From contig DATBJH010000077.1 of NCBI GenBank assembly GCA_036556505.1, positions 6,862 through 70,861 on the forward strand: a DNA stretch of 64,000 nucleotides, given 5' to 3'. Source of the stretch: Gemmatimonadales bacterium. GTDB taxonomy: Bacteria; Gemmatimonadota; Gemmatimonadetes; Gemmatimonadales; GWC2-71-9. This document shows positions 12,615-39,147 of the stretch, piece after piece. Position 1 is the stretch's first letter. Each line of letters opens with the position of its first letter. The position numbers were made by a program, and so were the translations under genes. Below the pieces are notes generated by a model. The model saw only the letters and a list, made by a program, of their open reading frames with translations, did no database searches and had not been told where the DNA came from.

Positions 12615-13603
12615 GGCAACGTCCTCAGCCGTCCCCCGCGCAACGCAAGCGCCGCGGCGAGGAGCGCCAGCGCGGGGGCGAGGAGCCAGGGGAAGAGCTC
12701 GCGATAGTCCCGCGTCTGGTTGATGGTCACCTCCTGGCGCTCCAGCGGATCCAGCTTCTCCATGATCTGCCCCAGCGCTTCGGGGTCCGTCGCCCGGAAA
12801 TACTCGCCGCCGCTCCGCTCCGCGATCCGGCGCAAGACCCGCTCGTCCGAGCTGGTGAGCCGGTCGGGCGTGCGGCCTTGCCGCCAGATGAAGCCGTCGT
12901 TGAACCCGGTCGTGTCCGGCGCGCTCACGCCGATAGTGTGAATCCGGACGCCGATCGCCCGCGCAGCTTCGGCGGCTACGAAGGGACCGGGCGAACCGGT
13001 GTTGTTGGCGCCGTCGGTGATGAGCACGATCGCGCTGGCGCGACTCGGTAGGTCCTTGAGCTGACTGAGACAGAGCGCGAGCGCCGTCCCGATGCCGGTG
13101 CCGTCCGGCAGCTGACCGATCTCCACTCGCTCGAGCATCTCGCCCAGCAGATCGGTGTCCGGCGTGAGCGGCGCCTGGAGGAAGGGGCGGCCGGCGAAGA
13201 TCACCAGGCCGAGCAGATCCCCCTGGCGCTGCCGGGCGAAGTCGCCCAGCACCTGGCGCGCCACCTCCAGCCGGTTGCCGGGCTTGAAGTCCGTCGCCTT
13301 CATGCTGCTGGAGATGTCGAGCGCGAGCATGAGGTTCCGGGCCCGGCTCTTCACTTCGCGCACGTCGTGCGGCACCTGCAGGCGCGCCAGCGCCAGCACC
13401 AGCAGCGCCAGCGAGGCTATGCCGAGCGCGTCGGGGAGCAGGCGCCAGCGCGCCCGGCGCGGCGCCGGCTCGGAGGCAAGGAAGGCCAGCGCCGGAAAGC
13501 CGATGCGCTCCGGAGGCGGCTCCCGCCGCCGAAGCGCCAGCCGGAGCGCCAGCCCGGCGGGCAGGGCGAGCAGGACGAGGAACCAGGGGTCAGCGAACCG
13601 CAT
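12611..13603 (-). CDS. BatA-like VWA-domain membrane protein
   Basis: The ATG at 13603 gives MRFADPWFLVLLALP.... It has the MIDAS motif DISSSM, a VWA core and a C-terminal TM segment. It overlaps the downstream gene by 4 nt. Confidence 0.85.
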   Translation of the reverse strand: MRFADPWFLVLLALPAGLALRLALRRREPPPERIGFPALAFLASEPAPRRARWRLLPDALGIASLALLVLALARLQVPHDVREVKSRARNLMLALDISSSMKATDFKPGNRLEVARQVLGDFARQRQGDLLGLVIFAGRPFLQAPLTPDTDLLGEMLERVEIGQLPDGTGIGTALALCLSQLKDLPSRASAIVLITDGANNTGSPGPFVAAEAARAIGVRIHTIGVSAPDTTGFNDGFIWRQGRTPDRLTSSDERVLRRIAERSGGEYFRATDPEALGQIMEKLDPLERQEVTINQTRDYRELFPWLLAPALALLAAALALRGGRLRTLP

Positions 13604-14564
13604 CCAGCTCCTCCGACCCGGCCGCCTGGTGCCAGCGGGCGAGCAGTGCGCGGGCGGCCTCGGTATAGCCCGCCGCGTCCGCGGCACCCGGGCGCTGACG
13701 GGCGAACTTCACCAGATCGGCCGCGCCCAGCACTTCCTGCACCCGGCGGCGCACCCCGCCCTCGGCGAGCCGCGGCGGCAGCGACCACAAGAGCTCGGTC
13801 GTGGTTCGCTCCGGCGCCGGGATGCCCTCGGCCCGCTGGAGGTACTCCCGCAGCACTCCCGCCACCAGTTCGTAGTGGCGCTCCACTTCGCCGCGGCTGA
13901 ACCAGCGCTCCCCATCGATGGCCTCCAGCCGGGCGAGCGCGACGGCGTACGGATCGCGCGGTGGAGGGGGTAATGGGGGCGCCTCCATGGTCTGCCGAGC
14001 CTTGACCGGCGTACGCCATCGCCGCCTGGTCGTCGCCCAGGTGACACCGGCGGCGCCCGCGGCCCCGAGCAGGATCCAGAGGGGCGTCAGTCTCGGCGGC
14101 GTCTCCGGTTCCCGAATGTCTCGCAGCGACGGATTGCCCCCGGGGAGCACCGACGTCACTTCGATCTCCACCGGATCGTGAGACATCACCCCCCGGTGGC
14201 CGGTCACGATCTGCATCCAGGGAAGCCCGAACGGCGGCACCTGCTGGCGTCCGGGGCGATAGAACGCCAGCACGGCGCTGCCGGTGAAGGCGCGGTCGGG
14301 ACCGCGCTGGAGCTTTTCCGCCGACAGCACGCGCACGCCGGGTGGCAGCTCGCCGACCGGGCGCGGCACCGTGTCGGTCAGCAGGTCGCGCTCGTTGATG
14401 ATGAGGCGGAAGCGAACGGTGACGGAGTCCCCGACGGCCACCTTCGCGGGCGCGGCCGTCGCGGTGAAGAAGCGGCCCTGGTTGAGCTGGGCATGAGCGG
14501 ACGCTGGCGGCAGCACGAAGAGGAGCAATGTCAGGGAGAGGAGCAATGTCAGCCTGAACCTCAT
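13590..14564 (-). CDS. Bat-operon membrane protein: signal peptide, Ig-like extracytoplasmic region, TM segment and DUF4381-like cytoplasmic tail
   Basis: The ATG at 14564 overlaps the DUF58 stop (ATGA). The N-terminus is MRFRLTLLLSLTLLLFVLPPASAHA. The tail has YELVAGVLREYL...ADLVKFARQRP, typical of DUF4381. The Arg-rich 237-aa upstream extension in the ORF track is rejected. Confidence 0.7.
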   Translation of the reverse strand: MRFRLTLLLSLTLLLFVLPPASAHAQLNQGRFFTATAAPAKVAVGDSVTVRFRLIINERDLLTDTVPRPVGELPPGVRVLSAEKLQRGPDRAFTGSAVLAFYRPGRQQVPPFGLPWMQIVTGHRGVMSHDPVEIEVTSVLPGGNPSLRDIREPETPPRLTPLWILLGAAGAAGVTWATTRRRWRTPVKARQTMEAPPLPPPPRDPYAVALARLEAIDGERWFSRGEVERHYELVAGVLREYLQRAEGIPAPERTTTELLWSLPPRLAEGGVRRRVQEVLGAADLVKFARQRPGAADAAGYTEAARALLARWHQAAGSEELDAVR

Positions 14565-15442
14565 CGCCACAGCCGGCTCTCCCTCCGCCGGAAGAACGCC
14601 AGCAGCGGCTCGGCGTAGGACGCGCCGGTGTCCAGCCGGAGCAGGTCCGCCCCCGACTCGCGTAGCGTGTGCTCCAGCCGTGCAGCGAACTCGGCGGCCC
14701 GGAGCCGGAAGCGCTCGCGCAGGGTGCGGTCGGACGTGTTCACCACTCGCCACGCCCCACTCTCCGCGTCCCACAGCGTCACCAGCCCGACGTCGGGCAG
14801 CTCCCGCTCCCGCGGGTCCACTACCTGGATCGCGATCAGATCGTGCCGCCTTGCCAGCCGGCCCAGGGCCGCCTCCCAGCCGCTGCAGATGAAATCGGAC
14901 ACGAGGAAGATGACGGCGCGACGCCGAAGCATCGGCTCCAGATAGGCGAGCGCGGCGCCCAGGTCGGTGCCCGCCCCCCGAGGCTCGAAGGCGAGCAGGT
15001 CGCTGATGACGCGGAGGGCCTGACGTCGCCCTTTGCGCGGGGCCACGTAGTGCTCGACCCCGTCGGTCGCGAGCACCGCGCCCACGCGGTCGTTGTTGCG
15101 AGCGGCCGCGAGGGCGAGCACGGCGCACACTTCGGTGGTGAGGTCGCCCTTGGTCCGGCGGACGCTGCCGAAGCGGGCGGAGGCGCTCTGGTCGGCCACG
15201 AAGAGCACGGTGAGCTCGCGCTCCTCGAGGTAGCGCTTCACGTAGGCGGAGCCGAGCCTGGCGGTGACGTTCCAATCGATGGTGCGGATGTCGTCGCCGG
15301 GCTGGTACTCACGGACCTCGGCGAACTCGACCCCGCGGCCGCGAAACGCGCTGGAGTACTCCCCGGCCATGATGTCGCGCACGAGGTGGCGCGTAGTGAT
15401 CTCCAGGCGCCGGACCTCGCGCGTGACCTCCTCCGGGCTCAT
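14561..15442 (-). CDS. DUF58 domain protein (MoxR-associated, VWA-like)
   Basis: 293-aa ORF with REYQPGDDIRTIDWNVTARL, the DUF58 signature. It has 4-nt overlaps with both neighbouring genes. Confidence 0.88.
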   Translation of the reverse strand: MSPEEVTREVRRLEITTRHLVRDIMAGEYSSAFRGRGVEFAEVREYQPGDDIRTIDWNVTARLGSAYVKRYLEERELTVLFVADQSASARFGSVRRTKGDLTTEVCAVLALAAARNNDRVGAVLATDGVEHYVAPRKGRRQALRVISDLLAFEPRGAGTDLGAALAYLEPMLRRRAVIFLVSDFICSGWEAALGRLARRHDLIAIQVVDPRERELPDVGLVTLWDAESGAWRVVNTSDRTLRERFRLRAAEFAARLEHTLRESGADLLRLDTGASYAEPLLAFFRRRESRLWR

Positions 15443-16440
15443 GGCACCGGCACCGCCTCGAGAATGCGGCGCAGCACCTCATCCGCGCCCACGCCTTCGG
15501 CGTCCGCGCGGTAGGTGAGGATGATCCGGTGCCGGAGGACGTCGAGGCCCAAGGCCTTGATGTCGTCCGGGGTGACGTAGGCGCGGCCCTGGAGGAAGGC
15601 ATGGGCCTTGGCCGCGCGGAGCAGGAAGATGGCCGCGCGTGGCGAGGCGCCGAACTCGATCAGCGGGGCGATCCCGCCCAGGCCCGCATCCGCCGGCCGC
15701 CGTGTGGCGGCGACCAGGTCGAGCACGTACTCCTTGATCCGGTCGTCGGCGTAGATCTGGTGCACCAGCCGCCGCGAGCGCAGGATCCCTTCCGGGTCGA
15801 GCACCTGACGCACCGCCGGCTCGTCACCCAGCGTCATCCGGTCCAGCACCTCCCGTTCCTCCCGCCGCTCCGGGTAGGTGACGGCCAGCTTGAACATGAA
15901 GCGGTCCACCTGCGCCTCGGGGAGCGGATAGGTCCCTTCGTGCTCGATCGGGTTCTGGGTGGCGAGCACCAGGAACAGCTCGGGCAGCGGGAAGGTGCGC
16001 CCGCCGATCGTCACCTGTTTCTCCTGCATGGCCTCCAGCAGCGCGCTCTGGACCTTGGCCGGCGCGCGGTTGATCTCGTCGGCGAGCAGGAGGTTGGTGA
16101 AGATCGGCCCCTGCTGAACCGTGAAGTCGCCGGTCCGCTGGTTGTAGATCATGGTGCCGATCAGATCGGCCGGCAGCAGATCCGGAGTGAACTGGATCCG
16201 GTGGAAGCCGGCTGAGATGGTGGCGGCGAGAGTGCGCACCGCCAGGGTCTTGGCGAGGCCGGGCACGCCCTCGAGCAGCACGTGGCCGTCCGCCAGGAGG
16301 CCGATCAACAGCCGCTCCAGCATGGCGCGTTGCCCGACGATGACCCGGCCGATCTCTTCCGTCAGCACGGCGGTCAGCCGGGCATGCTCCTCGATCTCGG
16401 CGGTGGGGAGGAGGTCCCGGCGTTCGGGGATGGAGGTCAT
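15439..16440 (-). CDS. MoxR-family AAA+ ATPase
   Basis: 333-aa ORF with Walker A (GVPGLAKT), Walker B (LLADEINRA) and a typical MoxR C-terminal region. Confidence 0.93.
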   Translation of the reverse strand: MTSIPERRDLLPTAEIEEHARLTAVLTEEIGRVIVGQRAMLERLLIGLLADGHVLLEGVPGLAKTLAVRTLAATISAGFHRIQFTPDLLPADLIGTMIYNQRTGDFTVQQGPIFTNLLLADEINRAPAKVQSALLEAMQEKQVTIGGRTFPLPELFLVLATQNPIEHEGTYPLPEAQVDRFMFKLAVTYPERREEREVLDRMTLGDEPAVRQVLDPEGILRSRRLVHQIYADDRIKEYVLDLVAATRRPADAGLGGIAPLIEFGASPRAAIFLLRAAKAHAFLQGRAYVTPDDIKALGLDVLRHRIILTYRADAEGVGADEVLRRILEAVPVP

Positions 16441-16453
16441 CGGAGAAATCTAA

Positions 16454-16485
16454 GGCGGTACGGCGGTACGGCGGTACGGCGGTAG
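16454..16485. repeat. Octamer tandem array, 4 units (GGCGGTAC x3, GGCGGTAG)
   Basis: Read directly. It lies in the divergent region between the moxR ATG (16440) and the beta-propeller gene (16557). Confidence 0.9.
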
Positions 16486-16556: not shown

Positions 16557-18419
16557 ATGGCCAGGTCTGCTACCGCGCTCCTCACCACCCTGCTCGCGGG
16601 CGGCATCGGCTTCGCCGCACTCTCCGCTTCGCAGGATGCCGCGTCCATGTTCCGCGGCGACGCGACCCACTCCGGGGTCTACGCCTCCGCGCCGTTGCGC
16701 CAGTTCGGCGGGCTCCAGTGGCGGGTGCAGACCGGCGGCATGGTCCAGTCCTCCGCGGCACTGCACGATGGCACGGTCTACATCGGCAGCGGGGACGGGC
16801 TGCTCTACGCCCTCGACGCGAGCACGGGCGCCCAGCGGTGGCGGTTCCGGACCGGGCGCGCCATCTCCTCGACGCCCGCCGTGGCCGACGGACTCGTTTT
16901 CGTGGGAAGTCGTGACAACACCTTCTGGGCGGTGGATGAACGGACCGGTGAGGAGCGCTGGCGCCTCGAGACCGGTCGCGACGTTCCCTTCCCCTGGGGC
17001 TTCGAGAGCGGCGACCTGTACACCTCCTCGCCCACCTGGGCCGGCGGCACGCTCTACTTCGGCAGCGGTGACGGCCGCGTCTATGCCGTCGATCCGAAGA
17101 GCGGGAGAATCCGCTGGCGCTTCAGCACCCGGGGACGGGTGCGCTCCTCTCCGGCCGTGGCAGACGGACGGCTGTACACCGGCAGCGCCGACGGCACGCT
17201 GTACGCGCTCGATGCGAAAAGCGGGCGCGAGCTATGGCGGTTCGATACCGAAGGACACGGGCTGGAGTCCGGCAAGTTCGGCTTCGATCGCCGCACCATC
17301 CAGGCGTCGCCCGCGGTGGGGGACGGTCGCGTCTATGTCGGCTCGCGTGACGGCTTCCTCTACGCGGTGGACGCCGCCACCGGGAAACAGCTCTGGCGGG
17401 TGGACCATCAGATGTCGTGGGTCAACACCTCGCCGGCGTTCGCCGACGGGATCGTGTACGCCGGCAGCTCGGACGAGCGCTTTCTCCAGGCGGTGGACGC
17501 GCGCACGGGCCGGGAGCGGTGGCGGGTGACGACGCAGCGCCCGGTGTGGTCCTCGCCCGCGGTGGTCGGCAACATGGTTTACGTGGGAGACGGCTCGGGC
17601 ACAGTCTACGCGGTGGACCGCGCCAGCGGCCAGGAGCGCTGGCGACATCAGGCCGGGCGCCGGATCTTCTCGTCCCCCGTGATCGCCGATGGAGTGCTCT
17701 ACGTCGGAAACGACGACGGCGGCGTGTACGCCATACGCGGATCCGACACGCCGATGCTGCGCGCGGTCTTCTGGGACAGCGCGCTGGTCCGGGCCTCACG
17801 CGTCGTCGCCCACCGGGAGCTCCGGGAGTACCTCACCCAGCGGGGCTACGAGGTCCTCGACAGCAGGGGCCTGCAGCGATTCCTGTCGGCCCGGCTCCAG
17901 GACCGCTCGCCCAGCGTGGTCGTCTTCTCCATGGACCATCTGCCGGCGACCGTGGCTCCGGTCGCCGCGGACACCGTGCTCTTCCGCCGCTATCTCGACG
18001 CCGGCGGGAAGGTGGTCTGGCCCGGCATCCCTCCGCTGATCTGGCCGCGTGACCCCGCGACCGGCGAGGGCTCGGACTACATCAAGATCGATCGCGTCGG
18101 GACGGCCCGGCTCCTCGGGGTGGACCACGCCCGGAGCAACTTCGACAACTACGGTGCGGTCGTTACCGCGGCGGGGCTTCGCTGGGGATTGTCGGGGTGG
18201 TGGGACAGCAACTGGGGCGTGGATCCCGCAGGGGTGACCGAGACCCTGGCGAGGGACGACAACGGCCTCGCCAGCTCCTGGGTAAGGAGCTACGGTGGAC
18301 CGCCGGGGACAGGGTTCGTGAGGGTGTACGGGGGCAACTGGTCCGCCGGCGGCCCCACGGCGAGCTTCGCCGCCGTGCAGGCCGTGGCGGAGTACCGGCC
18401 GGCTATACCGGCCCGTTGA
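16557..18419 (+). CDS. Secreted PQQ-like (BamB-type) beta-propeller repeat protein with an unassigned C-terminal domain of about 230 aa
   Basis: The ATG at 16557 gives the signal-like MARSATALLTTLLAGGIGFAALSA. There are about 8 repeats of the G.VY.GS.DG.LYA.D...G...W pattern. I do not recognise the C-terminal part. Confidence 0.8.
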   Translation: MARSATALLTTLLAGGIGFAALSASQDAASMFRGDATHSGVYASAPLRQFGGLQWRVQTGGMVQSSAALHDGTVYIGSGDGLLYALDASTGAQRWRFRTGRAISSTPAVADGLVFVGSRDNTFWAVDERTGEERWRLETGRDVPFPWGFESGDLYTSSPTWAGGTLYFGSGDGRVYAVDPKSGRIRWRFSTRGRVRSSPAVADGRLYTGSADGTLYALDAKSGRELWRFDTEGHGLESGKFGFDRRTIQASPAVGDGRVYVGSRDGFLYAVDAATGKQLWRVDHQMSWVNTSPAFADGIVYAGSSDERFLQAVDARTGRERWRVTTQRPVWSSPAVVGNMVYVGDGSGTVYAVDRASGQERWRHQAGRRIFSSPVIADGVLYVGNDDGGVYAIRGSDTPMLRAVFWDSALVRASRVVAHRELREYLTQRGYEVLDSRGLQRFLSARLQDRSPSVVVFSMDHLPATVAPVAADTVLFRRYLDAGGKVVWPGIPPLIWPRDPATGEGSDYIKIDRVGTARLLGVDHARSNFDNYGAVVTAAGLRWGLSGWWDSNWGVDPAGVTETLARDDNGLASSWVRSYGGPPGTGFVRVYGGNWSAGGPTASFAAVQAVAEYRPAIPAR

Positions 18420-18663
18420 ACGCGGGGTCGCTGGCCCGGGTGCGGAGGTCGGTCTCCCCACCCCGCTGCCAGCCCCCCCGGAACTCGAAGTGGCGCTCGT
18501 CCAGGATCCTGCTGGCGAGCGCCGCGGTGCCCTGCTGCTGGACCTGCCACAGCAACACCTTGGCCCCGACCTCGGCGGCCGTCTCCCAGACACCAGCTTC
18601 CAGCTGCGGGTAGCTCTCGGCAAATTCGGGCTTCAGCCGGGCTTCCCGGGCCGTGAATTCCAT
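18403..18663 (-). CDS. Hypothetical small protein (86 aa)
   Basis: ATG at 18663, preceded by GGAGG at 5 nt. I recognised no motifs. It overlaps the convergent upstream gene by 17 nt. Confidence 0.45.
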   Translation of the reverse strand: MEFTAREARLKPEFAESYPQLEAGVWETAAEVGAKVLLWQVQQQGTAALASRILDERHFEFRGGWQRGGETDLRTRASDPAFNGPV

Positions 18664-18809
18664 CTGACCTCCGGTGCGCTTGCGAGCGGATGGCACTGGT
18701 CTCGAGGGGGGTAAGAAGGGTGGAAAATGCAGCCTCCGGGTCCCCCGCACCAGAGGCGAAAGTCCCCTCCCACCCCTATGCAACTTCCCTGCCTGTCTAA
18801 TTTCCCCCC

Positions 18810-19847
18810 ATGCGGATCGCCGTCGTCTTCGACACCCCGTACGCCGGCTGGCACCATCCGGAGCACGAGCGCCAGATGACCAAGGAAGTGGCCGCCTGGC
18901 ACCACGACGAGCCCGAGATGGAGTACCAGATCGCCGATGCCCTCCGGGAGCGGGGTCATGAGGTGTTCCTGATCGGGGTCAGCGACGACCTCCAGTACCT
19001 GGTCGGCTGCCTGGACCAGATGCGCCCCGACCTGGTCTTCAACGCGGCGGAGGCGTTCCACGGCAACCCGGGTCTGGAGTACCTGGTCCCGGGCGTGCTG
19101 GAGGCCGAAGGGTACCCGTACACCGGGTCACCGCCGCAGGCGTTGCTGGTCTCCCGCAACAAGGCCATGAGCAAGAAGGTGCTCGCCTGGCACGACATCC
19201 GGGTGCCGGGCTTCGTTACCTGGCGCCCCGGTGAGACGCTCGAATCACGCGGCGACCTCCGCTACCCGGTGATCGTGAAGCCGCTCCAGTCGGATGCCTC
19301 GGTCGGCATCGCGCAGGCCTCCGTGGTCCAGGACGAGGCCTCCCTGCTGGAGCGGGTGACCCTGGTACACGAGCGCTTTCACCAGCCCGCCATCGCGGAG
19401 GAGTTCGTGGACGGGCGGGAGCTGTACGTCAGTGTCATCGGCAACGGCGACGAGCTCGAGATCCTCCCGATCACCGAGATGGTCTTCGACAAGCGGAAGA
19501 CCCGGCCGGAGGAGCGGATCGCCACCAAGTCGGCCAAGTGGGACGAGGACTACCGCGCCCGCAAGGGAATCCGTAACGTCTTTGCCCGCCCGATCGCGGC
19601 CAGCGTCCGGGAGCGGATCGAGGCCATCTGCCGGACCGCCTTCCGCGCCCTGTGGCTTCGCGACTACGCGCGGCTGGACGTGCGACTGGCGCCGGACGGC
19701 GAGGTCTGGTTCCTCGAGGCCAACGCCAACCCATTCATCAGCTACGGACACGACATGGCGAACGCGGCGGAGAAGGCCGGGCTGGATTACTACGGTTTCG
19801 TGCAGCGCCTGGTGGACCTGGCGATGGCCCGGCATGAGCGCGCGTAG
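18810..19847 (+). CDS. ATP-grasp enzyme, D-alanine--D-alanine ligase-like
   Basis: 345-aa ORF with MRIAVVFD... and SRNKAMSKKVL, YPVIVKP, ELYVSVIG, WFLEANANP, which are typical Ddl-family ATP-grasp blocks. Confidence 0.85.
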   Translation: MRIAVVFDTPYAGWHHPEHERQMTKEVAAWHHDEPEMEYQIADALRERGHEVFLIGVSDDLQYLVGCLDQMRPDLVFNAAEAFHGNPGLEYLVPGVLEAEGYPYTGSPPQALLVSRNKAMSKKVLAWHDIRVPGFVTWRPGETLESRGDLRYPVIVKPLQSDASVGIAQASVVQDEASLLERVTLVHERFHQPAIAEEFVDGRELYVSVIGNGDELEILPITEMVFDKRKTRPEERIATKSAKWDEDYRARKGIRNVFARPIAASVRERIEAICRTAFRALWLRDYARLDVRLAPDGEVWFLEANANPFISYGHDMANAAEKAGLDYYGFVQRLVDLAMARHERA

Positions 19848-20844
19848 GCGATTGCGCGAGCGGGGGCCGGTCCCCGAGCATCGCTGCGTGTGCGGGCAGC
19901 GGCTGCACAAGTACTGGAACCACTGTCCCAACTGTTCCCGCGAGCTCCAGTGGCGCGACCTGGACAACGTCACCGGCGCCGAATGCTTCAACTGCGGCTG
20001 GATCGTCTCCGACAAGTTCTCCTGGTGCCCGTGGTGCGCGGCGGACATCTACGAGGAGGGCTACTCCAGCGAGACGCCGCTCAAGGCGCCGAAGGGCTTC
20101 CGGATGGACGCCCGCTGCGACTGGGGCTGCGGTGGCGGAGTACAGTACCCGATGCCCAACTGCCCCTGGTGCGGGCGGGCCCAGCATTGGGACGAGTCGG
20201 ACCGGTTCGAGGGCGACTGCCCCCACTGCGGCCGCGGAGTGGACGACTGGATGAACGCCTGCCCCTGGTGCGGCAGCGACGCCACCGGGCGCGACCTCAT
20301 CCCCCGGGCGCTCACCCGGGCTCGCCGGCTGCTCCTGGTGAGCCGGATCCGCGACTGGGGGTACCGGGTGCTGCTCCGGCCCGGCATCTCGGGCGTGGAT
20401 CCGCGCTACCCCAAGATCGTCGAGATCGAGCAGCGCTACGTCGTGGGCAAGCGGCGGCAGGACGAGATTCCGTGGACCATGCTGGTCGGGCTGATAACCC
20501 ACGAGCTGGGCCACAGCTTCCTGTACCATCATTGGGACTGGACCCGCAGCCGGCGCTTCCGCCGAGCCTTCGGCGACGTGGACAAGGCCTACCGGGCCAT
20601 GGACAACACCTGGGTGTACTTCCAGCGCCGCCGCATTGCGATCGCACCGCGAGACCACGTCAGCGCGTACGCGGCCAAGCATCCCCAGGAGGATTTCGCC
20701 GAGACGTTCCGGTTTTACGTCACCCGGCGGGGTCGGCTGCGCGACCTGTTCGCGGAGTTCGGACAGAAGCGGAAGGGTGTGATCCTGTACGAGAAGTTTC
20801 TCGTGCTGCACGACTTCGTGCGGGCGCTGCGGGGGTGGGGATAG
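19834..20844 (+). CDS. Four-zinc-ribbon protein with a C-terminal HExxH (zincin-like) putative metallopeptidase domain
   Basis: The ATG at 19834 overlaps the ATP-grasp gene by 14 nt. There are four CxxC/CxC...CP(N/W)C units. These are followed by THELGHS and, about 60 aa later, QEDFAETF. The ORF-track extension back to 19432 is rejected. Confidence 0.75.
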   Translation: MSARRRLRERGPVPEHRCVCGQRLHKYWNHCPNCSRELQWRDLDNVTGAECFNCGWIVSDKFSWCPWCAADIYEEGYSSETPLKAPKGFRMDARCDWGCGGGVQYPMPNCPWCGRAQHWDESDRFEGDCPHCGRGVDDWMNACPWCGSDATGRDLIPRALTRARRLLLVSRIRDWGYRVLLRPGISGVDPRYPKIVEIEQRYVVGKRRQDEIPWTMLVGLITHELGHSFLYHHWDWTRSRRFRRAFGDVDKAYRAMDNTWVYFQRRRIAIAPRDHVSAYAAKHPQEDFAETFRFYVTRRGRLRDLFAEFGQKRKGVILYEKFLVLHDFVRALRGWG

Positions 20845-22473
20845 TCACCACCACCCCGCCTTCTTCTTCACCGTGCGCTTGCCCTCCTTGAGGGCTTCCA
20901 TCGCGGCATTCCGGCCGTTCACTCCGATCACGCTCCCGCCCGGATGCGTCCCTGCGCCGCACAGCAACACGCCGGGCATCGGCGTCCGGGCGCGCAGCCG
21001 TCGGTCCCACATGTACTGGGGCAGGATCTCCCCCTGGAAGATGTGACCGCCGGTGAGGCCGACGCGCTCCTCGATGTCCGGCGGGCCCAGCACCTCCATC
21101 CCCGTCACCGCCGCCGGGATGTTGCTGCAGAAACGGCCGATCGACCGAACTACGACCTGCCCCACCTCCTCTCGGCGGCTGTTCCAGTCACCTTCGCGGA
21201 AGGCGTGGGGGACGTATTGGGCGAACACGCTCAGCGTGTGCACTCCGTCGGGGACGACGCTGCGGTCGAACACGGTGTGCAGGTACAGCTCGTTCCAGGT
21301 CTTCGGCGGAAGCACTCCCTCGTTCGCCAGACGGTGGTGCTCGCGCCATTCGTCCTTCGTGAGGGGCGTGTTCACCTGCCCGGTGTGGTGCGGCTGGCGG
21401 AGCCCCGGCCGCGCGGTGAAGTCCGGCAGCGCCGACAGCCGGAGGTTCACCTTCACCGTGATGCCCCGGGTGGGCAGCGCGCGCACCTGCCGGGCCCAGG
21501 TCCCGTCCGCCGCGTCGCCCAGGAGCCGGAGCGTGACGGTCGGGTCGGCATTGGAGATCACCTGCGGCGCCGTGATCCGCTTGCCGGACGCGAGCTCGAC
21601 TCCTTCACCGGGGAGGATACGCGCGACCGGCACCCCAGTCGCCACCACGGCGCCGAGCCCGCGGGCGATGTCGCACAGCAGGAAGGACACCATCCCCATC
21701 CCGCCTTCCACGTAGCCCCACGTCCCCGGCAGTCCGAACATCCGGCCCGAGGCGTGGTGGAACCACACCGAGGCCGTACCGGGCTCGTGCGGGCTCGCGT
21801 TGGTGCCGATGACACCTTGCCCCAGGTAGGCGAGGTGCATTCGCTCATCGTCCATGTACCGTTCGACCATCTCCACCATGGACCAGTCGAACAGGATCGC
21901 CCGGGCCTCCGCATCGCCCCGCAGCCGTCGCTCGATCTCGTCGCGGTCGGGCGCCGGGTCGAGCCACAGGTCGCCCGCACCGTCGGGGCGCAGCGCGTCG
22001 CGCAGCCGCTGCTTGGCCGCCTGCATCGCGCGCCATCCGGCGAGGTCCCCGGGGGCGAAGCGGGTGATCTCCGCCTCGCAGCGGGCATCGTCGTTCCAGA
22101 GCTGGATGCTGCTGCCGTCTTCGAACGGCACGAAGAGCCCGCCGACCGCGGGGAACCAGCGGAATCCGTGGCCGGGCAGATCGAGCTCCTGGATGACGGT
22201 TGGATGCAGCAGCCCCGCGACGTAGGCGCAGGGCGACATCCGGACGCCGGGCCAGGGCTCCTCCATGGTGCAGGCGCCGCCCACGCGATCCCTGGCCTCG
22301 AGCACCAGTACCTTGCGGCCCGCCCGCGCCAGGTAAGCGGCGCAAGTGAGCCCGTTGTGGCCGGCACCGACGATCACCGCGTCCCACTGCCTTCGGGCGA
22401 GCTCCGCCACGGGCCGCGGCAGGCCGATCCGGCCGAGGACCTCGGCGGTGGGGCTGGAGTGTGGTCGAGTCAT
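20845..22473 (-). CDS. FAD/NAD(P)-dependent oxidoreductase, phytoene desaturase (CrtI)-like family
   Basis: The ATG at 22473 gives MTRPHSS.... It has the dinucleotide-binding motif VIVGAGHNGLTCAAYLARAG. Length is 542 aa. The ORF-track N-terminal extension is translated octamer repeat and is rejected. Confidence 0.85.
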   Translation of the reverse strand: MTRPHSSPTAEVLGRIGLPRPVAELARRQWDAVIVGAGHNGLTCAAYLARAGRKVLVLEARDRVGGACTMEEPWPGVRMSPCAYVAGLLHPTVIQELDLPGHGFRWFPAVGGLFVPFEDGSSIQLWNDDARCEAEITRFAPGDLAGWRAMQAAKQRLRDALRPDGAGDLWLDPAPDRDEIERRLRGDAEARAILFDWSMVEMVERYMDDERMHLAYLGQGVIGTNASPHEPGTASVWFHHASGRMFGLPGTWGYVEGGMGMVSFLLCDIARGLGAVVATGVPVARILPGEGVELASGKRITAPQVISNADPTVTLRLLGDAADGTWARQVRALPTRGITVKVNLRLSALPDFTARPGLRQPHHTGQVNTPLTKDEWREHHRLANEGVLPPKTWNELYLHTVFDRSVVPDGVHTLSVFAQYVPHAFREGDWNSRREEVGQVVVRSIGRFCSNIPAAVTGMEVLGPPDIEERVGLTGGHIFQGEILPQYMWDRRLRARTPMPGVLLCGAGTHPGGSVIGVNGRNAAMEALKEGKRTVKKKAGWW

Positions 22474-22485
22474 GGCATGAGAATG

Positions 22486-22657
22486 GGCGGTAAGGCGGTA
22501 AGGCGGTAGGGCGGTACGGCGGTACGGGGGTACGGCGGTACGGCGGTACGTCCTTCCCACCCGACCACCTGACCGGCTGACCGCCCGGCCGGCTGACCGC
22601 CCGACCGGCTGACCGCCCGACCGCCTGCCCGCCTTACCGCCCGACCGCCCGACCGCC
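22486..22657. repeat. Inverted pair of octamer tandem arrays: 8 x GGCGGTAM (22486-22549), a short spacer, then 12 x CYGACCGS (22561-22656)
   Basis: Units were read and counted directly. The arrays occupy most of the 196-nt divergent intergenic region between 22473 and 22670. Confidence 0.9.
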
Positions 22658-36315: not shown

Positions 36316-38979
36316 ATGGATTCACGTCAGCAGGATATCGCCCAGGGCCTGAGCGGCCGCTACGTCATCGAGCGCGAGCTCGGGCGCGGCGGCATGGCGA
36401 GCGTCTGGCTGGCACGGGACGTCCGTTACGACCGGATGGTCGCGCTCAAGGTGCTCCACCCGGACCTGGCAGCGACACTGGGCCCCCAGCGCTTCCTGCG
36501 CGAAATCATGCTGGCCGCCCGCCTCCAGCACCCTCATATCGTGCCGGTCTACGATTCCGGCGAGATCCCTTCCTCCCGCGCGACGGTACCGCCCATCCTG
36601 TGGTTCACGATGCCGTGGATCGAAGGCGAGTCGTTGCGCGAGCGGCTGGGACGTGAGGGACGACTTTCTCCGCCCGAGGCGGTCAGGATCGCCCGCGAGG
36701 TCGCCCGCGGCCTCCAGTACGCCCACGACCACGGCGTGATCCACCGCGACGTGAAGCCGGAGAACATCCTGCTCACCAGGGACGGGAGCACGATGGTCGC
36801 GGACTTCGGCATTGCCCGACCTGCCGGGACCGCGGGCACGGAGCATCTGACAGGGACCGGCGTCGTGATCGGCACTCCGATCTACATGAGCCCGGAGCAG
36901 GCGGTGGGAGGTGAGCTGGATCCCCGCGCGGATGTGTACTCACTCGGTTGCGTCCTGTACGAGATGCTCACCGGCGGGCCGCCGTTCGGCGGAGCGACGG
37001 TGCAGGAGGTCGTCGCTCGCCACCTGACCGAGCCGCCGCCGCTCTCCGGCACACGGGTCGCCGAAATTCCCGGCGTCCTCAAGGCCGCCCTGGGCCGGGC
37101 GCTGTCCAAGTCCCGCGACGATCGTCCGGCGACAGCCGCACAGTTCGCCGAGTCGCTCGGCAGTCAGGACGGAAGCGTGGCGATGTCGAGCCGCCGACGC
37201 GCGGCCGCGGTGGCCGCGGTCGCGGGCGCGGCCGGGCTGGCGGCCTTCGTGGCGCTCCGCGGACCGTCCGACGACGCGGGCGCGCCGACGGGTTCGTCCT
37301 CCCAAGGCACCGTGGCGTCGGGATTCGCGCGCCGCCTGACCCAGCTCACCTCGCGGGAAGGCCTGGAGGAGTGGCCGACCTGGTCCTCCGACGGGCAGCA
37401 GCTCGCTTACGTGGCCGAGGTGAACGGCTACCGCCAGCTGTTCGTGCGACCAGTCGCCGGCGGCGCGGAGCGGCAGCTTACCGACGACCCGCGGGACCAC
37501 ATCCAGCCGGCGTGGTCACCCGACGGTGCGCGCATCGCGTTCGTGCGCGGCGCTACCGCCACCGGCAAGCTCGAGCCCGACGAAGTGGACGGGTACTACT
37601 TCGAGGGAGCCGAACTGTGGAGCATTGAGCTCGGCTCGGGGGAGGCCTCCAAGCTGCTGGAGGACGGATTCAACCCCTCGTACTCGCCGGACGGGCAGCG
37701 TCTCGCCTTCGACGCCGAGCTCGCAGGAGCGCAGCGGGTCTGGGTCGCGGACACTCGCGGGCGCAACCCCCGTCAGGTGACCTCCGATTCCAGCGAGGCC
37801 GTGGTGCACACCGAGCCCCACTGGTCGCCCGACGGCTCGAGGCTGGTCTTCCGGCGTATCGAGAAGCTGAAGTCCGACATCGCCATCGTGAACCCGACGA
37901 CGCAGGCGGTCACCCGGGTGACGGACGATTACGTGGTGGACGTGTATCCGACATGGATGCCCGACGGTCGCGCGATCGTCTTCTCGTCCAGTCGCGGTGG
38001 CGGCGTCAATCTCTGGCGGGCGCGGCTCGACCAGGACGGCTCACCGAAGGGCCTGGAGCAGCTCACCACCGGAGCGGGTGACGACGTGCAGGCCTCGGTG
38101 CATCCCGATGGGCGCGAGCTCGTGTTCGCCGTCCGAGGCATCAACTCCGACCTCTGGCAGCTGCCGGTCTCGCCCGAGACGGGCCGACCGGCGGGAAACC
38201 CGACGCCCGTGCTCGGCACGACCCGGGTCGAGAGCCGCGGCACCTGGTCGCCGGACGGCCGGCAGCTCGCGTTCAATTCGGATCGTGCCGGCGAGATGAA
38301 CATCTGGGTGCTGGACTCGGCCCGACACGAGCGTCGGGTGACAGTCGGTCCCGGAGGCGATTACCAGCCCGACTGGTCGCCGGACGGCCAGGCTCTGGTG
38401 TTCTTCTCCGCCCGCGGCGGCAATACCGACATTTGGCGGGTACGACTCTCGGACACGTCGCTCACCCGCCTCACCCAGGATCCGGCGCTGGACATCAACC
38501 CGGCGAATTCACCGGACGGACAGCGGATCGCCTTCGTCTCCGACCGGAGTGGACGGTTCGAGGTCTGGGTGATGCAGGCCGACGGCACCGCACAGCAGCA
38601 GGTAGCCTCGGTGGGCTGCTGGGGTCACTTCGTGGCCTGGACCACGGACAGCAGGGCAATCGTCTTTCGAGGCGAGCGGGACCGACAGATGCAGATCTAT
38701 CGGGTCGACGTCGCGAGCGGCGCGCTCACGCCGCTGCCACCCGTGCGCAGCGGCGGCCACATGTCGTTCTCGCCCTCGCAGTCGGTGATCATGGACGTCA
38801 ACAGCCACAAGGTGATCTGGGCCCATCCCGTCAACGGCGGGCCGCCCTACGAGATCTACCAGTTCCCGGACCCGGATGTGCGCATCGACTACCCGCGCTG
38901 GTCGCGAGACGGGCGGCTGGTCGTGTTCGACCGTACGGCACCCCGGGGAGCGGATCTGTGGACGTTGGAGGGGTTCTAG
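36316..38979 (+). CDS. Ser/Thr protein kinase fused to TolB-like (WD40-like) beta-propeller repeats
   Basis: 887-aa ORF. The kinase domain has HRDVKPENILL, DFGIA and GTPIYMSPE. A TM segment follows, then about 10 repeats containing the WSPDG motif. Confidence 0.9.
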   Translation: MDSRQQDIAQGLSGRYVIERELGRGGMASVWLARDVRYDRMVALKVLHPDLAATLGPQRFLREIMLAARLQHPHIVPVYDSGEIPSSRATVPPILWFTMPWIEGESLRERLGREGRLSPPEAVRIAREVARGLQYAHDHGVIHRDVKPENILLTRDGSTMVADFGIARPAGTAGTEHLTGTGVVIGTPIYMSPEQAVGGELDPRADVYSLGCVLYEMLTGGPPFGGATVQEVVARHLTEPPPLSGTRVAEIPGVLKAALGRALSKSRDDRPATAAQFAESLGSQDGSVAMSSRRRAAAVAAVAGAAGLAAFVALRGPSDDAGAPTGSSSQGTVASGFARRLTQLTSREGLEEWPTWSSDGQQLAYVAEVNGYRQLFVRPVAGGAERQLTDDPRDHIQPAWSPDGARIAFVRGATATGKLEPDEVDGYYFEGAELWSIELGSGEASKLLEDGFNPSYSPDGQRLAFDAELAGAQRVWVADTRGRNPRQVTSDSSEAVVHTEPHWSPDGSRLVFRRIEKLKSDIAIVNPTTQAVTRVTDDYVVDVYPTWMPDGRAIVFSSSRGGGVNLWRARLDQDGSPKGLEQLTTGAGDDVQASVHPDGRELVFAVRGINSDLWQLPVSPETGRPAGNPTPVLGTTRVESRGTWSPDGRQLAFNSDRAGEMNIWVLDSARHERRVTVGPGGDYQPDWSPDGQALVFFSARGGNTDIWRVRLSDTSLTRLTQDPALDINPANSPDGQRIAFVSDRSGRFEVWVMQADGTAQQQVASVGCWGHFVAWTTDSRAIVFRGERDRQMQIYRVDVASGALTPLPPVRSGGHMSFSPSQSVIMDVNSHKVIWAHPVNGGPPYEIYQFPDPDVRIDYPRWSRDGRLVVFDRTAPRGADLWTLEGF

Positions 38980-39147
38980 GCGGTCGGGCGGTCGGGCGGT
39001 CGAAGCTGCCTGTCATTCACGAGGAGCGCAAGCGACGAGTGATCTTCTGCCCAATGTCGAATCATCCGCGAGGGAGATCCCTCGCCTCGCTCGGGATGAC
39101 AGAAGGCGCTCGGTCCGGCTGACCGCCCGACCGCCCGACCGCCCGCC
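38979..39147. repeat. Composite nested inverted repeat: 3 x GGCGGTCG, then REP-like palindrome copy 3 (39011-39101), then CTGACCGC CCGACCGC CCGACCGC CCGCC
   Basis: Read directly. It begins at the last base of the kinase TAG and ends one base before the FtsH-type gene's stop (39148-50). Confidence 0.9.

Follow-up and report, generated by a model that had tools for sequence, protein, structure and literature searches.

Several described systems pair an enzyme that forms an amide bond at the expense of ATP with a hydrolase acting on the same substrate, the two being encoded together or fused: RimK and its operon partners, glutathionylspermidine synthetase/amidase, PafA/Dop, VanA/VanX, and tubulin tyrosine ligase with the tubulin carboxypeptidases. 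Such ATP-grasp/hydrolase pairs underlie ribosomal protein S6 glutamylation, glutathionylspermidine turnover, vancomycin resistance and tubulin tyrosination. Here we describe a two-gene locus of comparable design in a 64-kb stretch of DNA (64,000 nucleotides, G+C ~70%; hereafter the window) from a Gemmatimonadales bacterium (GenBank assembly GCA_036556505.1, contig DATBJH010000077.1). Gene 1 encodes a divergent ATP-grasp amidoligase of the D-alanine-D-alanine ligase (Ddl) superfamily, and gene 2, whose start overlaps the end of gene 1, encodes a protein in which four zinc ribbons precede a predicted zinc-dependent peptidase (zincin) domain. The reading that we prefer, with a probability of roughly 0.5, is that of a cytoplasmic ligase/peptidase pair in which both enzymes act on one peptide or protein substrate. 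Gemmatimonadota are a widespread and poorly studied soil phylum, and the pair is tightly conserved there.

Layout and conservation of the gene pair

An earlier note on this DNA had described a Ddl-like ATP-grasp gene overlapping the start of a 336-aa protein by 14 nt, and this layout was recovered exactly (Table 1). Gene 1 ends with TAG at 19845-19847 and gene 2 starts with ATG at 19834, an arrangement consistent with translational coupling of gene 2 to gene 1. The spacer upstream of the pair presumably, from its position, holds the promoter of a two-gene operon; downstream, a flavin adenine dinucleotide (FAD) oxidoreductase open reading frame (ORF; 20845-22560, minus strand) converges on gene 2 with zero spacer, the stop codons abutting at 20844/20845. 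A scan around the pair for sigma-70 consensus promoters and terminators gave no matches, and no terminator-like hairpin was found at the abutting stop codons. With a divergent gene on one side and a convergent gene abutting the stop on the other, the pair forms a two-gene operon that leaves no room for a precursor gene. The only small gene nearby (18406-18660, minus strand) does not share synteny with the pair. Neither protein contains a signal peptide or hydrophobic segment when its sequence is read by eye, so both are probably cytoplasmic. An exact-sequence look-up of the window protein returned no record.

A scan of one genome per species gave 80 peptidase loci and contig look-ups added 2 more (n = 82), mostly from Gemmatimonadales but including one Kofleriaceae and one Myxococcales metagenome-assembled genome (MAG); the closest relatives, at up to 90-92% identity, come from Gemmatimonadales MAGs. 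An ATP-grasp gene lies directly upstream, on the same strand, in 76 of the 82 loci, and one further locus begins inside the peptidase gene and is uninformative on this point. When the junction is measured from the in-frame start codon to the ligase stop, an overlap of 1-35 nt is seen at 74 of 76 measurable junctions, and one of exactly 14 nt, as in the window, at 47 of 76, a count which took the start codon nearest the stop and is therefore biased to short distances; the chosen ATG coincides with the start of the protein alignment in many loci. More than 45 loci share only these two genes with the window, all other neighbours being different, and the window's own neighbours (genes for MoxR, DUF58, a pyrroloquinoline quinone (PQQ) propeller, the 85-aa ORF, the FAD oxidoreductase, an AlaX-like protein, HD-GYP and PBP4) recur only in close relatives. 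The Kofleriaceae contig and a 697-kb Myxococcales contig both carry the pair with entirely different neighbours. The adjacency of the two genes is beyond chance. A lack of co-conservation had been named beforehand, in the earlier note, as one of the findings that would refute its proposal, and the counts given here show the two genes to be co-conserved.

The ligases of Myxococcota are 57-61% identical to that of the window and some Gemmatimonadota ligases 48-52%, so that the former are closer than some of the latter, which suggests joint transfer of both genes between phyla, with misbinning of MAGs as a possible source of the same pattern. Taken with the constancy of the junction, these identities suggest that the pair has been inherited and transferred as a unit. 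Three apparent natural fusions of ligase and peptidase (P0250, P0251 and P0306) were read as frameshifted contigs and not as real fusions. In an exhaustive search of 1.8 billion cluster representatives, the full-length gene 2 family formed essentially one cluster at 50% identity and is thus a narrow clade.

Table 1. Coordinates of the gene pair and of the elements within it (positions in the window).
Feature	Position	Strand	Basis
Gene 1, divergent Ddl-superfamily ATP-grasp amidoligase, 345 aa	18810-19847	+	ORF map, Pfam PF07478
Gene 2, four-zinc-ribbon module followed by a Peptidase_Mx-type gluzincin domain, 336 aa	19834-20844	+	
Overlap of the end of gene 1 with the start of gene 2, 14 nt	19834-19847	+	Sequence
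Spacer between the divergent 85-aa ORF and the ATP-grasp start, 149 bp	18661-18809		ORF map
Ligase lid, residues ~223-262, MVFDKRKTRPEERIATKSAKWDEDYRARKGIRNVFARP	19476-19595	+	Alignment with DdlB
Four-ribbon module, residues 18-147, 16 Cys, KGF linker between ribbons 2 and 3	19885-20274	+	
Catalytic zincin domain, residues ~155-336	20296-20841	+	Pfam PF15887, AlphaFold2, Foldseek
HELGH, residues 223-227 (H223, E224, H227)	20500-20514	+	
Y279-x6-E286-D-F-A-E290-T-F, with EDFAETF at residues 286-292	20668-20709	+	

The ligase, the zincin and the four-ribbon module

Gene 1 matches the Pfam model Dala_Dala_lig_C (PF07478) with an E-value of 2.9e-23 (82.9 bits, cut-off 24), and its closest solved relatives are Ddl, VanA (E down to 2.6e-19) and an L-amino-acid ligase. 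The best NCBIfam Ddl score, 126.2 bits for NF002378, lies far below the cut-off of 243, and every other Ddl model likewise scored far below its cut-off; the NCBIfam Van ligase models gave 43-72 bits against cut-offs of 495-775, and the RimK model PF08443 gave 16.2 bits, below its cut-off of 21. Homologues of the ligase are labelled by NCBI only as 'ATP-grasp domain-containing protein'. They form a tightly conserved subfamily, the best 120 clusters being at least 78% identical.

The ligase was aligned with Escherichia coli DdlB, taken from the MG1655 record, to which it is 28% identical. Residues that are invariant with DdlB included (DdlB K144, E180, E187, K215, R255, D257, E270 and N272, corresponding to K157, E197, E204, K243, R288, D290, E303 and N305, respectively) serve ATP, Mg2+ and acyl-phosphate chemistry, and on this alignment the machinery is intact. 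The D-alanine (D-Ala) pocket, by contrast, is replaced: of the DdlB residues that shape the two D-Ala sites, S150 has become A163, Y216 W244, G276 F309, S281 H314 and L282 D315, and the GEDG loop of DdlB has given way to NPGLEY. These pocket substitutions are conserved within the subfamily. The N-terminal domain carries an insertion of ~24 aa after the first strand, and the lid, which is the counterpart of the Ddl omega loop and holds W244, is ~20 aa longer than that loop, basic and strongly conserved. With both sub-sites rebuilt and the lid lengthened, the enzyme should form its amide bond between partners different from two D-Ala molecules. Both the scores below the NCBIfam cut-offs and the replaced pocket residues speak against an ordinary Ddl, an identity that the earlier note had listed as refuting its proposal; no second ddl gene was found within the window.

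The C-terminal domain of the gene 2 protein matches Pfam Peptidase_Mx (PF15887) with an E-value of 3.5e-14 (53.3 bits, gathering cut-off 27) and ATLF with an E-value of only 0.19, and its homologues are labelled 'putative zinc-binding metallopeptidase' by NCBI. HELGH is followed 63 residues later by EDFAETF, the pairing from which the earlier note had proposed a gluzincin-like metallopeptidase (at a distance it put at about 60 residues). H223 and H227 are the predicted zinc ligands, E224 the predicted catalytic base and E286 the predicted third zinc ligand. Residues H223, E224, H227, Y279, E286, D287, F288, E290 and F292 do not vary within the family and are kept in two proteins of the same architecture at 30% identity (P0294 and P0313). 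In a profile search of solved structures, the Y...ED(F/I)(A/V)E block aligned with Mx1-type lipoproteins of Bacteroides (9urd, 4l7a).

AlphaFold2 gave a moderate model of the entire gene 2 protein (predicted local distance difference test score, pLDDT, 68.6); for residues 150-336 the pLDDT was 73.7 and the predicted template modelling score (pTM) 0.78. Nearly all of the top 50 PDB matches that Foldseek returned for the domain model are anthrax lethal factor or the Pro-Pro endopeptidases PPEP-1/3, and the top viral match is a 'lethal factor' fragment, every fold-search match having an E-value above 0.01. The spacing from tyrosine to glutamate is 7 (Y279/E286), as in lethal factor (Y728/E735) and PPEP-1 (Y178/E185). 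The domain is thereby predicted to be a gluzincin whose active site resembles that of the M34 endopeptidases, an assignment that stops short of membership of M34. In the close family, the extreme C-terminus of the peptidase (residues 332-336, window 20827-20841) consists of LRGW and a single variable residue, an ending which is absent from a 59%-identical representative (P0242).

Canonical members of Peptidase_Mx carry a single N-terminal zinc ribbon of the Zn_ribbon_DZR_6 type (PF10005) before the peptidase domain. PF10005 gave no match in gene 2, which has four DZR/DUF7575-type ribbons in its place; judged by these profiles, a ribbon followed by an Mx domain is the norm of the family, of which gene 2 is a variant in that it has four ribbons, and these of a different type. 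On a Caballeronia plasmid (NZ_CP084262.1, 412690-425748; locus L092) the canonical ribbon-Mx gene (WP_244850404.1) lies within a cluster of genes for two circularly permuted type 2 ATP-grasp proteins, an alpha-E protein and a transglutaminase, and in Eleftheria the ribbon-Mx gene adjoins a transglutaminase gene and lies downstream of it. For the ribbon-Mx genes of Sphingomonas, Paracoccus, Cupriavidus, Shinella and Microvirga, no neighbour of these kinds was found. The link between Mx zincins and ATP-grasp clusters is real in some Burkholderiales and is not general. On Ralstonia megaplasmids, a 21-aa remnant of a transglutaminase gene was seen beside the ribbon-Mx gene, which adjoins a type III effector gene.

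The four consecutive zinc ribbons that the earlier note had read in gene 2 are all present, as the Cys4 units C18/C20...C31/C34, C51/C54...C65/C68, C95/C99...C110/C113 and C129/C132...C143/C146, and are matched by the Pfam models DZR (E 5.7e-7) and DUF7575 (E 1e-7). Across 17 modules of ~130 residues in differing architectures, every Cys but one (15 of 16) is invariant, as are several other residues; the exception, C18 at the start, is nearly so. A module matching residues 19-150 is fused to Peptidase_C39 in P0315 and P0353 (64.6 bits for P0353) and to Prok-JAB in P0341 and P0354; it occurs with a nucleoside deoxyribosyltransferase-like region, by a weak match, in P0302, and with DnaJ in P0325. 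In P0274 it accompanies an N-terminal region that may, by eye only, be a calcineurin-like phosphoesterase, and in P0336 it stands alone and is followed by a separate C39 gene. By this distribution the four-ribbon array is a portable module that accompanies predicted peptidases of three catalytic classes.

A profile search with the module returned mostly short fragments, and the contexts of two hits (P0403 and P0395) were too short for use. Scans of viral contigs found no ribbon module, and a metagenome scan with P0294 and P0313 returned only the locus of P0313 itself, which has no ATP-grasp gene, and unrelated zinc-ribbon membrane proteins. The genes for P0298 and P0313 adjoin those of dynamin-like GTPases (L084, 3335-7645; L085; L086, 2002-3786); P0298 is also neighboured by genes for Mu Gam, ThiF, ThiS and a DNA ligase, which resembles a mobile or conflict-type context.

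Possible roles of the pair

The best-supported reading is that the two enzymes act on one substrate: both active sites appear intact, the genes are translationally coupled, and they move together. The ligase would use ATP to add an amino acid or a short peptide to the substrate, and the zincin would cleave that molecule at a peptide bond. This cut could either strip the added group, the two enzymes then being writer and eraser, or expose the end that the ligase uses, and the four-ribbon module would recruit the target or a partner. A single common substrate, its peptide or protein nature, the order of the reactions and the role of the ribbons are what we infer here. A peptide or protein is favoured as the substrate by the endopeptidase-like character of the zincin, by the occurrence of the module with C39 and JAB peptidases, enzymes that act on peptides and protein conjugates, and by the presence of zincin relatives in some clusters of amidoligases predicted to modify peptides. 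The pair probably marks an undescribed metabolite or an undescribed modification of a protein.

Several observations weigh against this reading. No substrate or product was identified from the sequence, and no third co-conserved gene was found among the 82 loci. In five loci (L031, L034, L050, L067 and L076) the peptidase has no adjacent ligase, the upstream gene encoding PBP4 in L031 and a major facilitator superfamily (MFS) transporter in L067, so that the peptidase is able to occur by itself, at least locally. The distant four-ribbon proteins P0313, P0298 and P0336 have no ATP-grasp neighbour, so that pairing with the ligase is specific to the Gemmatimonadota/Myxococcota clade, and most of the canonical Peptidase_Mx genes examined do not lie beside an ATP-grasp gene. 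Peptidase_Mx is matched in no more than its core (profile positions 74-165 of 236), and the Foldseek matches to lethal factor and PPEP are weak (probability up to 0.99, E 0.04-0.7, template modelling (TM) score ~0.4). Finally, the usual substrates of the characterised members of the Ddl clade are free amino acids, a point in favour of a small-molecule product.

The main rival reading, possible though in our view doubtful, is that the pair makes and breaks such a small molecule, with the ligase producing a cytoplasmic dipeptide or pseudo-peptide that serves as solute, signal or storage compound and the zincin hydrolysing it to set its level. Of the solved structures nearest to the ligase, all are of free-amino-acid ligases, a conserved E-x-E-Y (E36, E38, Y39) may match the region of Ddl E15 that holds the amino group, although this correspondence is uncertain, and comparable pairs exist in glutathionylspermidine synthetase/amidase and carnosine synthase/carnosinase. 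However, the structures that the zincin matches best are of endopeptidases whose clefts are extended, the peptidases that accompany the ribbon module process proteins or peptides, and no transporter or biosynthetic genes adjoin the pair. The Ddl ancestry of the ligase also invites a role in editing cell-wall precursors in the manner of VanA/VanX, in which the ligase would supply a different stem dipeptide while the peptidase disposed of the usual one or trimmed recycled stem peptides. Genes for PBP4 (Peptidase_S13) and an AlaX-like protein do lie within 6 kb of the pair in 27 of the 82 loci, the window included, but this proximity is limited to close relatives and is gone in all more distant loci; moreover, the D-Ala-binding residues are replaced, the Van ligase scores fall far short of their cut-offs, no VanH, VanX-type or mur genes are found nearby, and a four-ribbon, endopeptidase-like protein is unlike any known D,D-dipeptidase. 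We regard such a role as quite improbable, and the peptidoglycan-stem or polyamino-acid substrate that the earlier note had suggested drew no specific support from the pair: neither protein has signal or membrane segments, no mur genes are adjacent, and PBP4 accompanies it in close relatives alone.

The gene 2 protein might, in turn, have no peptidase activity and serve the ligase as a zinc-ribbon scaffold or regulator, either binding and controlling it or anchoring it to a nucleic acid or to the ribosome. Coupled translation points to a complex of fixed stoichiometry, the match to the Mx profile is confined to its core, and annotators at the Joint Genome Institute (JGI) named some homologues RNA-binding zinc-ribbon proteins; yet H223, E224, H227, Y279 and E286 are invariant down to 30% identity, which is hard to explain without catalysis and leaves a non-catalytic role improbable. 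That the adjacency reflects lineage synteny only, the two genes having unrelated functions, seems to us very remote: although the loci come mostly from one order, Gemmatimonadales, and a few lack the ligase, the pair and its overlapping junction persist while other neighbours change, even in another phylum. Within the reading of two enzymes on one peptide or protein substrate, a more specific version, which we consider unlikely, would be a reversible protein- or peptide-tagging system in which the ligase is the writer, the zincin the eraser and the four-ribbon module the reader of tag or target. In other lineages the module is joined to JAB and C39 peptidases, enzymes that cut after Gly-Gly tags and leaders. 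Such a system, if real, would do with a different set of enzymes what pupylation/depupylation or ubiquitin-like conjugation does. The four-ribbon module, being portable, offers a handle for finding related systems, and both proteins are small and predicted to be soluble, which makes them amenable to testing in vitro.

Other features of the window and comparison with known systems

Elsewhere in the window, the 85-aa ORF beside the pair has no Pfam match but is 75-89% identical to its counterparts in 28 of the 82 related loci and is a real gene; it does not keep its place next to the ligase-peptidase pair and lies beyond PBP4 in other genomes. Period-8 tandem arrays occur in intergenic spacers at 16454-16484, at 22486-22550 and 22560-22657, and at 38979-39002 and 39121-39145, and two of the spacers that bear them separate divergent genes. 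The arrays are built of the units GGCGGTAC, and GACCGCCC or GGCGGTCG, nearly reverse complements of one another; with up to 2 mismatches allowed, 11 copies of the 16-mer GGCGGTACGGCGGTAC were counted in the window, where 0.07 would be expected. On the minus strand of 13590-16440, a MoxR AAA ATPase gene (15439-16440) overlaps a DUF58/VWA gene (14561-15442) by 4 nt, and next comes a longer ORF (13590-15275), the C-terminal part of whose product seems by eye to be a BatD-type membrane protein, the whole resembling an ordinary MoxR-DUF58-Bat operon.

The pair is absent from the descriptions in Pfam, NCBIfam, PADLOC and PHROGs, and the literature searched on Peptidase_Mx, or on ATP-grasp proteins with zinc-ribbon or metallopeptidase partners, gave nothing relevant, with an earlier mention in a survey of amidoligase contexts being possible; within this scope no characterised system with the same architecture was found, and the earlier note had likewise been able to name none. 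A defence system or phage gene was set aside: neither protein has a PADLOC match, and the PHROGs matches are to generic zinc ribbons only. A graspetide or other cluster for ribosomally synthesized and post-translationally modified peptides (RiPPs) was rejected as well, there being no precursor gene, no third conserved gene and no downstream spacer, in keeping with the earlier note, which had seen no obvious precursor-like ORF next to the pair. So was a Van-type module, which lacks its VanH and VanX genes here as well as adequate ligase scores.

With DdlB- and VanA-type ligases, gene 1 has in common the ATP-grasp fold, the Dala_Dala_lig_C domain and the residues for ATP, Mg and phosphate; it is unlike them in its pocket, its loop, its insertions and its sub-cut-off scores, in the absence of mur/dcw context and in being always paired with a zincin. 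Gene 2 shares with the canonical ribbon-Mx proteins, which are likewise uncharacterised, an N-terminal zinc ribbon, HExxH and the Y...EDFAE block, but whereas the partner in Caballeronia is a circularly permuted type 2 ATP-grasp protein, that in the window belongs to the Ddl clade. The layout of HExxH, Tyr and Glu is common to gene 2 and the M34 enzymes (lethal factor, PPEP-1/3) at an identity of 12-17%; the latter are secreted toxins or proteases, whereas the gene 2 protein is predicted to be cytoplasmic and carries zinc ribbons. The C39- and JAB-fused ribbon proteins, all uncharacterised, contain that module (~130 aa, 16 Cys, KGF linker) ahead of a peptidase domain, but one of another catalytic class and in low-GC organisms, and those relatives of the module whose context can be read have phage-like or dynamin-like neighbours and no ATP-grasp partner.

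In summary, this locus follows the logic of the known amidoligase/hydrolase pairs, none of which combines a Ddl-clade ligase with a zinc-ribbon Mx zincin; no homology was found to the hydrolase partners of those pairs. The theme of an amidoligase joined to a hydrolase is a known one, and what seems new, within the libraries and literature searched, is the combination of a remodelled ligase of the Ddl clade with a four-ribbon module and a minimal zincin of the Mx type.

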